From assembly GCF_965201105.1 (NCBI RefSeq), contig NZ_OZ241741.1, positions 2,577,605-2,641,604 on the forward strand: a stretch of DNA of 64,000 bases. The letters are read 5' to 3'. Made by a program: the position numbers and the translations under genes. Within the stretch, counting starts at the first letter, position 1, and every line of letters starts with the position of its first letter. The notes under the pieces were generated by a model. The model was not told the DNA's origin. It searched no databases and worked only from the letters and a program-made list of their open reading frames with translations. Of the stretch, positions 9,635 to 11,251 are shown in pieces. The DNA is from Terriglobus sp. Lineage in GTDB: Bacteria; Acidobacteriota; Terriglobia; Terriglobales; Acidobacteriaceae.

Positions 9635-11251
9635 GTGTCTGCGACTTCGCACCCACGCACGCTCTTCGAAAAAAATTGGCAGCAGCACATCGTCGCGGAA
9701 CCCGCGGGTGAGCCACCCCTGCTCTATATCGACCTGCAGCTCGTGCACGAAGTCACGTCGCCGCAGGCCTTTGACGGCCTTCGCCTTGCCGGCCGCAAGC
9801 TGCGCCGCCCCGATCGCCACATCGCCACCGTCGACCACAACGTGCCCACCACCAGCGCCGCGGATCGCCTCAACATTGTCGATCAGGTCAGCGCTGCGCA
9901 GGTGAACGCTCTGCGCAACAACTGCGCCGACTTCGGCATCGAGTTCTTCGACGTGCAGGACGCCTCGCAGGGTATCGTGCACATGATCGGGCCGGAGCTC
10001 GGCGCGACCAAGCCCGGCATGACCATCGTCTGCGGCGACTCGCACACCTCCACGCACGGCGCGTTCGGCGCGCTCGCTTTCGGCATCGGCACCAGCGAGG
10101 TCGAGCACGTGATGGCCACGCAGACGCTGCCCCAGGCCAAGCCAAAAACCTTCCGCATCAACGTCGAAGGCGAGCTGCCCTTCGGCGTGACCGCGAAAGA
10201 CATCATCCTCGACATCATCGGCCGCATCGGCACCGATGGCGCGACCGGCTACGCGGTCGAATACGCCGGCTCGGCCATCCGCGCGCTCTCCATGGAAGGC
10301 CGCATGACTATCTGCAACATGAGCATCGAAGCAGGCGCCCGCGCCGGCATGATCGCTCCCGACGAAACCACCTTCGCCTACCTGAAAGGCCGCCGCTTCA
10401 GCCCCGGCACGCGCAACACTCCTTCCGAGGTGTCCGGCAGTTCCTCTGGTTTGTCATCCCGTAACAAAGCGACGGGATCTGCTTTTCGGACCAGCAACGA
10501 CTTGTCATTTCGACCGGAGGACGCACAGCTTCACCGTGGGTCCGAAGCGGAGAAACCTGCATTTGGAGCCGCCGCAGACGTAGACGAATCCGCGTGGGAA
10601 GAGGCTCTCAAGCACTGGCGCACCCTGCCCACAGACCCCGGCGCAACCTTCGACCGCGAGCTCACCATCGACGCCGCCACGCTCGCACCCGCCGTCACCT
10701 GGGGCACCTCGCCCGGCATGCACGCAACGATCGACGGCGCGGTGCCTACCCTCGCACAGGCCCCTACTGACGCCGACCGCAAGAGCTTTGAGCGCGCCTA
10801 CGAATACATGAACCTGAAACCCGGCACGCCCATGGAGCAGATCGCCATCGACACGGTCTTCCTCGGCTCCTGCACCAACGGCCGCATCGAAGATCTGCGC
10901 GCCGCTGCCGCCATCGTGCGCGGACAGCACGTCGCCGCCAAGATTCGCGCGATGGTCGTTCCCGGCTCGCAGGCCGTCAAGCGGCAGGCCGAAGCGGAAG
11001 GGCTCGACCTCGTCTTCAAACAGGCCGGCTTCGAGTGGCGCGAACCCGGCTGCTCCATGTGCCTCGGCATGAACCCCGACATCCTCGCCCCCGGCGAACG
11101 CTGCGCCTCCACCAGCAATCGCAACTTCGAAGGCCGCCAGGGCCGCGGCGGACGCACCCATCTCGTCTCGCCTGAAATGGCCGCAGCCGCCGCCATCGCG
11201 GGCCACTTCGTCGACGTCCGCAAGTGGGGCAGCAAGGAGCAACAGGCATGA
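9635..11251 (+). CDS. leuC: 3-isopropylmalate dehydratase large subunit, carrying a ~59-codon in-frame insertion
   Basis: GTG at 9635 gives [20 protein letters not shown]...[28 protein letters not shown] and CSMCLGMN (aconitase-family Fe-S ligands). It is 538 aa versus about 470 typical. The extra segment at roughly 10400-10580 is made of repeat families A and B. Confidence 0.9.
10453..10564 (+). repeat. Composite repeat (family A copy 10453-10489 plus family B copy 10504-10564) inside the leuC reading frame
   Basis: GTCATCCCGTAACAAAGCGACGGGATCTGCTTTTCGG, then GTCATTTCGACCGGAGGACGCACAGCTTCACCGTGGGTCCGAAGCGGAGAAACCTGCATTT. Both match the intergenic copies elsewhere in the window. Confidence 0.85.

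Follow-up and report, generated by a model that had tools for sequence, protein, structure and literature searches.

Hairpin repeats of two dispersed families, A and B, very probably lie in frame within leuC of the Terriglobus DNA analyzed here (a stretch of 64 kb, hereafter the window), are translated as a tolerated unstructured loop of the enzyme and have been turned over at this one site within the clade. Members of both families are present inside leuC in sense orientation, at a site that corresponds to a short turn before a helix and comprises four residues in nearly all bacteria. Since stop codons are absent from all three sense frames of the repeats and the added length is divisible by three, the insert would be translated as an unstructured loop of 59 residues, and this loop would leave the isopropylmalate isomerase fold and the Fe-S ligands unbroken. 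Repeats would have been gained, replaced and lost at this site repeatedly.

The leuC gene and its product

The leuC gene (9635..11251, + strand) encodes the large subunit of 3-isopropylmalate dehydratase as an intact ORF with homologues in PF00330; the start codon is likely the GTG at 9635, giving a protein of 538 aa. At 100% identity it matches WP_419804081.1, a Terriglobus sp. entry annotated as the large subunit of 3-isopropylmalate dehydratase. The protein also matches the PDB entries 4KP1 and 4NQY and has the attributes of the LeuC/aconitase family: full-length similarity, three 4Fe-4S Cys ligands and a predicted aconitase three-domain fold. Its motifs GSC413TNGR and C473SMC476LG are unbroken, and it retains all columns that do not vary among 123 LeuC sequences. 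The gene is located in a leuA-leuB-leuC-leuD-ilvD cluster that is conserved in relatives, and its partner leuD, for the small subunit, is an ORF at 11728..12372 (+ strand) recognized by synteny with LeuD (PF00694) of relatives. The host is a free-living soil Terriglobus (Acidobacteriota).

A 93%-identical relative (L208), taken from an independent metagenome assembly, carries the same insert. Between this sequence and the window, dN/dS outside the insert is 0.062 over 475 codons; the enzyme is thus under strong purifying selection (omega 0.06), and the gene looks functional. This leuC is very unlikely to be a pseudogene in decay, or a paralogue made redundant by a second intact leuC that does the work. 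The low omega covers the time since the window and L208 diverged from an ancestor that already had the insert, the invariant residues and Cys ligands are all kept, the gene stands in its conserved cluster, and the 64-kb window contains no second LeuC-like sequence.

Borders, parts and predicted structure of the insert

The inserted segment (10406..10594, + strand) comprises the 63 codons between the conserved residues Pro257 and Trp321, where the baseline is four, and so adds 59 residues (177 nt). Its GC3 is 0.57, compared with 0.86 in the remainder of leuC, and its peptide is of low complexity, rich in Ser, Ala, Gly, Arg and Glu. The 5' part (10406..10452, +), without a recognizable repeat, begins with the GT(R/K) common to many insert-bearing orthologues and is 20% divergent from L208. 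The A copy and the B copy follow, separated by a spacer (10487..10503, +) that is homologous to the spacer of another relative (L086) and 37.5% divergent from L208. The 3' part (10565..10594, +), with 23% divergence, ends in the (V/I)DE(A/S)xW that is likewise common to many insert-bearing orthologues. No recognizable target-site duplication is present at the junctions.

An AlphaFold2 model built on an alignment of 123 more diverse sequences (pLDDT 78.7, pTM 0.80) has the isopropylmalate isomerase fold, and Foldseek matched it to 4KP1 with a TM of 0.86 and to aconitase as well; a first run on a shallow alignment of 50 close homologues (pLDDT 52.6) was discarded. The only internal segment with pLDDT below 50 is formed by residues 262-313, within a region (251-317) without predicted secondary structure that is followed by a predicted helix at 318-328. 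As judged from pLDDT and secondary structure, the loop may be exposed at the surface and lie at some distance from the LeuD interface.

The preliminary description of this DNA had reported about 59 extra residues in LeuC, an open frame with intact Fe-S motifs, and A and B copies that otherwise occur only between genes. The first is borne out by the gap of 63 against a baseline of four in alignments with 120 homologues and 80 genomes, the second by the unbroken GSCTNGR and CSMCLGMN and the invariant columns of the 123 sequences, and the third by the four A and four B copies described below. Its alternative, that the segment is removed at the RNA level, finds no support in these data. We consider excision before or after translation, whether intron-like, as an intein or by translational bypass, to be very unlikely. 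All that speaks for it is how odd it is for a conserved enzyme to carry 59 additional residues. Apart from the SRP RNA in the window, Rfam revealed neither a group I or II intron nor a member of another family in the window or the insert, and 177 nt is far below intron or intein size. Frame is kept in at least seven insert architectures, which argues against splicing, since this is not required of a segment that is spliced out. Inteins contain a Hint domain of about 130 aa or more, with an N-terminal Cys, Ser or Thr and a C-terminal His-Asn followed by Cys, Ser or Thr. The insert was rejected as a candidate intein: its 59 extra residues are of low complexity and without predicted structure, it starts with GT after P and ends with ESA before W, and the junctions lack the Cys/Ser/Thr and His-Asn signature.

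Repeat families A and B in the window

The A copy in leuC (10453..10486, + strand, sense; E-value 6e-12) reads GTCATCCCGTAACAAAGCGACGGGATCTGCTTTT and contains the hairpin ATCCCG/CGGGAT and the tail CTGCTTTT; it folds with a 7-bp stem at -8.9 kcal/mol. The B copy is of the long form (10504..10564, +, sense; E-value 6e-20), running from GTCATTTCGACCGGAG to GGAGAAACCTGCATTT. Its outer stem pairs 10508-10511 with 10552-10555, and its inner hairpin, at 10519-10543, has the stem GGACGCAC/GTGGGTCC; the whole folds as the three-tier hairpin of family B.

The window contains ten A and B copies, and the four A and four B copies outside leuC are all intergenic, each lying between ORFs of coding-type composition. 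Family A is found between a leuA-like gene and leuB (7733..7763, +), downstream of ilvC (21246..21278, +) and at 62735..62765 (-), and an A-like copy (47372..47429, -) has a glyoxalase-like ORF on one side and the thymidine kinase gene on the other. The intergenic B copies, all of the long form, are located at 40156..40232 (-), 41264..41341 (-), 48308..48383 (-) and 51363..51436 (+), the last with a different inner stem that is still paired. The nhmmer E-values of the copies range from 1e-10 to 1e-24, and shuffled sequence yielded zero matches to the leuC A copy. Both families consist of GTCA, a stem, a variable centre, the second strand of the stem and CTGC(A/T)TTT; they are related and resemble REP or MITE elements.

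At the gathering threshold, Rfam detected the SRP RNA alone in the whole window and no match for the repeats, and a permissive scan of 10380-10620 gave nothing meaningful. A terminator scan indicated that the repeats do not fit the canonical intrinsic terminator pattern. A peptide search in a set of 5.8 billion proteins returned 16 weak matches, all of them domain-less ORFs (hypothetical proteins) that span repeat arrays; no real host protein emerged from it, but these ORFs showed each of the three sense frames to be open. Literature searches found nothing relevant to the repeat sequence or its peptides and no description of acidobacterial REP or MITE elements. In annotations of Acidobacteria, such repeats also give rise to ORFs that are spurious and to start codons placed too far upstream, as in the ORF 21241-22380.

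Inserts at the same codon position in relatives

About 35 of the best 120 LeuC homologues have an insertion at the same codon position. The inserts vary in length and repeat content (A, short B, long B and a further family, C), and their peptides include LSSRPERSGVEGPAF, CHPERS... and GAPSSPTASSSAKVGS. The DNA of six loci (L081, L082, L086, L087, L025 and L001) confirms repeat-type inserts in leuC, and the combinations found comprise A with long B, A with short B, short B with C, C alone, B alone and decayed inserts. In the orthologues, at least seven distinct architectures occur, each in frame and stop-free. The gap measures four residues in most Acidobacteriaceae and in 74 of 80 species-representative genomes of many phyla, and within this set of 80 an expanded gap is seen in four Acidobacteriaceae loci only. 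As judged by these alignments, the insert occurs in a subset of the Acidobacteriaceae and is absent from other phyla.

Most sampled members of the Terriglobus clade carry homologous inserts, and some lineages are empty. The closest sampled neighbours of the window after L208, namely L084 and L085, have the empty (ancestral) site, whereas relatives more distant than these have homologous inserts, a distribution that simple vertical descent does not readily explain; the flanks of the insert show no visible recombination tract. The resolution of a neighbour-joining tree of LeuC alone was too low for gains and losses to be placed on it, and a tree of LeuA, LeuB, LeuD and IlvD was used in its place. 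The insert is older than the split between the window and L208. Because repeat content has been exchanged many times and some lineages are empty, the site seems to behave as a permissive nest, open to gain, replacement and loss.

The same comparisons bear on the idea that the segment is an old lineage-specific linker whose likeness to the repeats is due to chance or to an assembly artefact. The shared GT(R/K) and (V/I)DEAxW ends do suggest that the insert includes an old extension whose origin is neither A nor B. As an account of the whole segment, this idea is hardly credible: shuffles gave no matches to the A copy while E-values reach 1e-20, the relatives' inserts match intergenic repeats of their own genomes, the insert is absent outside the Acidobacteriaceae, and an independent metagenome assembly contains the same insert. 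For the A and B parts, the idea is refuted.

The initial interpretation of the segment, as a REP- or MITE-like composite inserted in frame and tolerated as a loop, is supported by its clade-limited distribution, the nhmmer and BLAST matches to intergenic copies of the window and of relatives' genomes, the omega of 0.06 and the disorder predicted by AlphaFold2. A homologous segment in unrelated phyla, which would have pointed to an ancestral linker, was looked for in the 80 genomes and was not found. The event is neither single nor rare: of 120 close homologues, about 35 carry different repeat-derived inserts at this codon position, and family B is present in other housekeeping proteins.

Family B in other genes, orientation and mobility

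A scan of metagenomes for the repeats yielded at least 120 stretches. In soil metagenomes, family B is found in frame in genes for a tRNA-synt_2 domain (class II aminoacyl-tRNA synthetase), TruB, a YegS/DAGK lipid kinase and Lhr. Five further candidate intragenic copies (L088, L109, L091, L148 and L166) were rejected as start-codon over-extensions or non-coding. The pattern is that of RPE-type in-frame insertion, with the same repeat both intergenic and in conserved ORFs that it does not disrupt. Recognizable intragenic copies are in sense orientation in every case; B copies lying between genes of the same direction are divided into 15 sense and 13 antisense.

Inverted doublets of family A occur at L081 (9844/9956 and 18276/18409), L087 (1023/1139), L082 (12653/12764) and L084 (10223/10326), and short-B inverted doublets, about 97-103 bp from start to start, at L089, L093, L102, L108, L132, L153 and L154. 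Doublets of this kind could be read as TIR pairs. The 5' tag is (T/C)GTCA, with TGTC in most copies and CGTC in a minority (L081, L025 and some metagenome copies). Genes for Y1_Tnp are present in relatives: the one of L081 is flanked by palindromes of the GGGCCGAAGGCCC type, the one of L083 has no evident flanking repeat, and none is found at the syntenic position in the window. No transposase was seen adjoining any A or B copy in about 1 Mb of loci. Because the palindromes that flank RAYT-like genes in relatives belong to another family, no cognate transposase could be assigned to A and B.

Conservation and covariation of the repeat DNA

The leuC repeats are better conserved in nucleotides than the synonymous sites of the gene. 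Between the window and L208, four of 98 positions differ in the repeats compared with 22 of 91 in the non-repeat DNA of the insert (Fisher p = 8e-5). For the B copy, in one orthologous pair, the difference amounts to 1/61 nt at a synonymous divergence of 0.31, and this single change converts a G-G mismatch into a U-G pair. The core of family C is near-identical in three lineages with a synonymous p-distance of 0.47-0.58. The encoded peptide does not share this constraint: dN/dS inside the insert is 0.51, so that its rate of evolution is about eight times that of the enzyme (0.06). Exaptation of the peptide does not follow from these rates, and it is the repeat DNA itself that is conserved.

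The stems covary. In 94 metagenomic copies, the outer stem of B is CC/GG in 58, CT/AG in 14, TC/GA in 13, TT/AA in six and a G-U combination in three, and none of 500 shuffles produced covariation as strong as that observed. The leuC copies across lineages have the stems CCC/GGG, TCC/GGA, CTC/GAG and TTC/GAA, and these compensatory changes alter the encoded residue to G, E, R or K. Non-Watson-Crick combinations are G-U on the sense strand only.

A possible reading, which we hold with considerable doubt, is that the hairpins are kept by selection on the nucleic acid, as an RNA or ssDNA cis element (for example a site of processing, stability or pausing in the leuCD mRNA, or one of protein binding), with the peptide as a by-product. 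It is favoured by the contrast of 1/61 nt in B with 20-37% in the flanking insert DNA and 31% at synonymous sites, by the near-invariant C core at such synonymous distances, by compensatory changes made at the expense of residues and by the sense-strand G-U as the sole departure from Watson-Crick pairing. It is further favoured by an insert GC3 that has not drifted to the host value and by the uniform sense orientation of intragenic copies, as opposed to the near-even division of intergenic B. The same pattern, however, could result from gene conversion against the numerous genomic copies, which are uniform, or from re-insertion that recurred at the site; the comparison covered few orthologous pairs, and the repeats match neither an Rfam family nor a canonical terminator. 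Any function of the insert would be dispensable, since L084 and L085 do well with an empty site. Such selection would extend the explanation by in-frame repeats translated as a tolerated loop rather than exclude it. In a tentative form of this extension, the leuC loop would be a long-lived nest, inside an essential coding sequence, in which nucleic-acid selection acts on structured repeats and stem covariation dictates residues of the enzyme, with cis function or mobility retained and with turnover at the one codon position, across a genus, by targeted insertion into, or conversion of, existing copies.

Comparison with known repeat systems

In-frame palindromic repeats have been published for Rickettsia and for the GTAG/CGTC REPs (PMC3733652, PMC10969869). 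The Rickettsia palindromic elements (RPEs) lie within protein-coding genes as in-frame insertions (Ogata et al. 2000, as cited in PMC10969869 and PMC3733652), and the leuC insert is an acidobacterial counterpart of them. As these citing papers portray them, RPEs share with the present repeats that they are short, palindromic and dispersed, occur between genes and in frame in housekeeping genes, are open in the frame used, are retained in orthologues and occupy positions compatible with the fold. The hosts differ, being free-living soil Acidobacteriota here and reduced intracellular Alphaproteobacteria there, the sequence families appear unrelated by inspection, and the elements measure 35-60 nt here against about 100-150 nt for RPE-1. 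In our case, moreover, several different repeat families have successively occupied one codon position, and conservation is higher in the repeats than at synonymous sites.

REP/REPIN elements, among them the intragenic GTAG/CGTC REPs of Opitutus terrae, Thauera, Stenotrophomonas and others (Di Nocera et al. 2013, PMC3733652; Bertels and Rainey 2011, PMC3116915), likewise carry a short, conserved tag on the 5' side of an imperfect hairpin. Also common to both are numerous copies that are mostly intergenic, inverted doublets spaced by about 100-130 bp and G-T stem pairs, as well as occasional in-frame copies encoding 20-80 residues, with genes for TruB, helicases and tRNA synthetases affected in both studies. 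The defining attributes of REPs and REPINs, namely a short imperfect palindrome in many mostly extragenic copies and the formation of inverted doublets, are found here; a cognate RAYT flanked by A or B was found neither at the relatives' loci nor at the syntenic position of the window. The tag differs, being (T/C)GTCA and not GTAG, with some copies alone reading CGTC, and the hairpin is three-tiered with a replaceable centre. The MITEs that make in-frame fusions (ERIC, BOX and Anabaena MITEs; PMC10969869) are similar as small non-autonomous repeats whose ORFs can be incorporated into host ORFs, whereas neither terminal inverted repeats with target-site duplications nor a parent IS was identified for the present repeats, and their single units are shorter than is typical of MITEs.

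Conclusions

Events of this kind are already known in other bacteria, but at leuC insertion or remodelling has recurred at one spot in related species. Discussion of the in-frame capture of palindromic repeats has mostly centred on Rickettsia and on a few Proteobacteria and Verrucomicrobia that are rich in REPs; the present case extends it to abundant free-living soil Acidobacteriota and to a central biosynthetic enzyme. The natural series of empty sites, single repeats, composites and decayed inserts could serve the study of how disordered loops are acquired, and the same series could be used to test nucleic-acid-level constraint on translated dispersed repeats.

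Identity and extent of the leuC insert

The insert-bearing leuC reading frame ends at position 11251 and has a plausible GTG start at 9635, giving a 538-aa protein 100% identical to WP_419804081.1 (3-isopropylmalate dehydratase large subunit, Terriglobus sp., 4.15-Mb contig). Re-reading of this frame reproduced the LeuC sequence quoted in the preliminary description. Among the 120 closest homologues, the commonest length is 474-478 aa and the usual local sequence is RRFSP-(Q/T)G(A/K/T)A-WDEAVAHW. Of 80 species-representative genomes drawn from many phyla, 74 have a gap of 4 residues between the corresponding Pro and Trp and two have a gap of 2, and gaps of 30-38 residues are confined to four Acidobacteriaceae. 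In the window LeuC (Pro257-Trp321) the gap is 63 residues, and the predicted excess of about 59 residues is borne out as 59 codons (177 nt) over the 4-residue baseline. Because the gap is so uniform and is expanded only in four Acidobacteriaceae, the insert is not an ancestral linker, which would have been expected as a homologous segment in unrelated phyla. A LeuC match in a Nitrosopumilus metagenome-assembled genome (L050, 10001-12280) spans 2280 nt instead of the usual ~1400, which suggests a large insertion or fusion.

The family A copy at 10453-10486 and the family B copy at 10504-10564 were confirmed within leuC by nhmmer, with E-values of 1e-10 to 1e-24 to the other copies; shuffled sequence gave zero matches to the leuC A copy. 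The other A copies lie at 7733-7763 (+), 21246-21278 (+), 47372-47429 (-) and 62735-62765 (-), and the other B copies at 40156-40232 (-), 41264-41341 (-), 48308-48383 (-) and 51363-51436 (+). All eight are intergenic, as had been proposed, on a crude gene map derived from codon-position GC, with one doubtful case inspected by eye. The longest reading frame of an alcohol-dehydrogenase-like gene begins, at 21241-21290, with MLSSRSVAKGSAF, a translated family A repeat, and its true start probably lies downstream of the repeat. Repeats of this type are likely to lengthen N-termini and to yield spurious "hypothetical proteins" in acidobacterial annotation (cf. the search hits P0121-P0135).

Structure and distribution of the repeats

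Families A and B share a common plan: (T/C)GTCA, a 5' stem arm (ATCC.., ATTTC or ATCCC), a variable centre, a 3' stem arm and CTGC(A/T)TTT. The short form of B, dominant in relatives and soil metagenomes, has 39 nt with the centre GCGNAGCG, and all three of its sense frames are open; in the long forms the centre makes a hairpin of its own, variable in sequence among copies but with pairing retained. Metagenome contigs were scanned with a B pattern in which two inner stem positions were left free (Y on one side, R on the other). The 94 B copies among the matches listed, from 80 soil and peat metagenome loci, comprised the combinations CC/GG (58), CT/AG (14), TC/GA (13), TT/AA (6) and G-U-compatible (3), and none was mismatched. 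In a formal count, 99.3% of cells were paired and 10 cells carried changes on both sides, a covariation reached in 0 of 500 shuffles; the sole non-Watson-Crick pairs were G-U on the GTCA strand. The repeats are therefore real structured units. They match no Rfam family and do not fit the canonical terminator pattern in a terminator scan. Both families also form inverted doublets ~100-130 bp apart, which resemble REPINs.

Five of these 94 listed copies are in-frame, sense-oriented parts of genes for bona fide proteins: a class II aminoacyl-tRNA synthetase (L094, 294-345), where the Pfam match spans the insert and an A-type VILSEAKNP unit is also present, TruB (L120, 2246-2307), a YegS/DAGK-type kinase (L134, 593-654), an Lhr helicase, where the copy falls between WH3 and WH4 (L137, 2937-2988), and the FtsK linker (L106, 7424-7475). 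No antisense intragenic copy occurs among the 94, and listed intergenic copies between same-direction genes comprise 15 sense and 13 antisense.

Integrity of the enzyme

Wherever 123 aligned LeuC sequences show no variation, the window LeuC has the same residue, including C413, C473 and C476, in agreement with the earlier statement that the Fe-S ligands are intact. The metagenome contig L208 carries the same insert in a 93%-identical LeuC, so the insert is not an assembly artefact. Compared between these two genes, the 475 codons outside the insert give a dN/dS of 0.062 and the insert itself 0.51; strong purifying selection on the enzyme has thus persisted from an ancestor in which the insert was already present. 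Pseudogene status is unlikely, given this low ratio and the retained invariant residues. The insert has a high content of Ser, Ala, Gly, Arg and Glu, and its GC3 is 0.57 vs 0.86 in the rest of the gene.

An AlphaFold2 model built from a diverse alignment (pLDDT 78.7, pTM 0.80) matches the large subunit of M. jannaschii isopropylmalate isomerase (TM 0.86, normalised to target) and also aconitases. Residues 262-313 are the sole internal stretch with pLDDT below 50; no secondary structure is predicted for residues 251-317, which are followed by a helix at 318-328. From the pLDDT and secondary structure of this model, the loop is probably exposed at the protein surface and may lie at a distance from the LeuD interface. 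The low dN/dS outside the insert and the confinement of internal disorder to 262-313 uphold the main reading of an in-frame repeat composite tolerated as a loop, and removal of the segment at the RNA level, offered as its alternative, is unlikely.

Different repeats at one leuC site

Insertions that add 6-59 residues occur at precisely the position of the window insert in about 35 of the 120 closest LeuC homologues. At the DNA level, the insert consists of A and short B in L081 and L086, short B and a third hairpin family, C, in L082 and L087, C alone in L001, L209 and L210, and B alone in L025; those of L083 (T. roseus) and L008 contain no recognisable repeat. Family C (CCCATCTTCGCCGACG-GCTTCAT-CGTCGGCTAAGGTGGG, translated as GAPSSPTASSSAKVGS; seen in L209 3001-4533, L210 3-1526 and L001 10751-10840) occupies the same site in many relatives. 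There, LeuC of an uncultured Acidobacteriaceae (L002, ~10700-10850) carries 34 inserted residues of another type (AGFPRASSTADFKDSERSGIHSFAAFRSAIGPDL). In L081 and L001 the leuC repeat matches intergenic copies of the same locus, A copies are abundant in the leu-operon spacers of these genomes, and in some LeuC inserts the same element is read in another frame (CHPERS... in the homologues P0117 and P0050). The ends SPGT(R/K)... and ...(V/I)DE(A/S)xW are common to many inserts, which speaks for a shared origin of the insert framework at least; a second allelic series ends in ...SESDW.

Conservation of the repeats at the nucleotide level

Along the insert, the window and L208 differ at 9 of 45 positions in the 5' non-repeat part, 3 of 37 in family A, 6 of 16 in the spacer, 1 of 61 in family B and 7 of 30 in the 3' non-repeat part, that is, 4/98 in the repeats vs 22/91 in the remaining insert DNA (Fisher p = 8e-5). 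Divergence is 31% at synonymous sites elsewhere in leuC and 9.5% over the whole gene; the chance that B would show no more than one change is 3e-9 at the former rate and 0.016 at the latter. That lone change turns an inner-stem G-G mismatch into a U-G pair. The 41-nt core of family C is identical in leuC of L209, L210 and L001 save one loop base, although synonymous divergence elsewhere in the gene is saturated (p-distance 0.47-0.58). The B copies within leuC differ among lineages in their outer stem, which is CCC/GGG, TCC/GGA, CTC/GAG or TTC/GAA, and the encoded residues vary accordingly (SSR/SFR on one side; EGP, EEP, ERP or EKP on the other). Conservation together with compensatory stem changes indicates that the feature kept is nucleic-acid structure, not peptide. 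It could result from selection on an RNA or DNA function at this site, from re-insertion at the site, or from gene conversion against uniform genomic copies; however, the inner stem of the leuC B copy is common to L208 and absent from the four other B copies, a point against conversion of B as far as the 64 kb of this genome covered by the window can show.

Gain, loss or transfer of the insert

A neighbour-joining tree of LeuA, LeuB, LeuD and IlvD (1387 columns) gave ((window, L084), (L082, L081)) with 100% bootstrap, L083 outside and the pair (L013, L001) further out. After L208, the nearest sampled neighbours are L084 and the syntenic fragment L085 (87% nucleotide identity in leuC, 82-90% in flanking genes). 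Both have the empty ancestral site (SPQGAGW and APQSEAAW), whereas the window/L208 insert is homologous over its full length, in part order, spacer and ends, to that of the more distant L086. To account for this distribution, the insert must have been lost repeatedly, or a very short patch replaced laterally, or both; the leuC flanks show no recombination tract. In the window leuC, the A loop GTAACAAAGCGA has its nearest match in an intergenic A copy of L084, and the B copy is of the long form, like the four other window B copies, whereas leuC of relatives carries short B. This resemblance to variants of its own lineage suggests that the repeats have turned over at the site, rather than that a single old insertion was passively inherited.

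Genomic neighbourhood and relation to known systems

The window leu/ilv cluster is interleaved with non-pathway ORFs: one between leuB and leuC (8950-9629; a 235-aa ORF at the equivalent position in L208), a GyrI-like protein (PF06445) between leuC and leuD (11248-11727; also in L208, with a 110-aa ORF lacking Pfam hits in L085), a small ORF between leuD and ilvD (12369-12902), and ORFs without Pfam hits between ilvD and ilvB (two, 14629-16121) and between ilvB and ilvN (one, 17927-18454). The sole Rfam match in the window is the bacterial small SRP RNA (33196-33293, -; 72 bits vs a gathering score of 40). The heptamer GCTGACT/CGCTGAC forms short tandem runs at 18469-18508, 33123-33160 and 33812-33841, of which two are inverted with respect to the first.

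A 150-aa Y1_Tnp (RAYT-like) gene occupies a syntenic ilv-region position in several relatives (L081 14756-15211, L083 15762-16214, L001 ~18504-18956, L025 ~16763-17210, L002 ~17578-18021) and is absent from that position in the window. Membership of A and B in a REP/RAYT system is not established: their tag differs from the REP tag in most copies, a minority reading CGTC, and the palindromes beside the L081 gene belong neither to A nor to B but to a fourth family (GGGCCGAAGGCCC type). No description of these acidobacterial repeats was found in a literature search. In-frame insertion of palindromic repeats is known from the Rickettsia RPEs and from intragenic GTAG/CGTC REPs (Di Nocera et al.; PMC3733652, PMC10969869), the closest known kind, and the leuC case behaves alike. 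The insertion is thus an acidobacterial case of a known phenomenon rather than a new category and, contrary to the rarity initially ascribed to it, is recurrent within the clade. Two points are notable: different repeat families have replaced one another at one codon position, and repeats within an essential gene are conserved as nucleotide sequence, with stem substitutions that are compensatory yet change the encoded residues.
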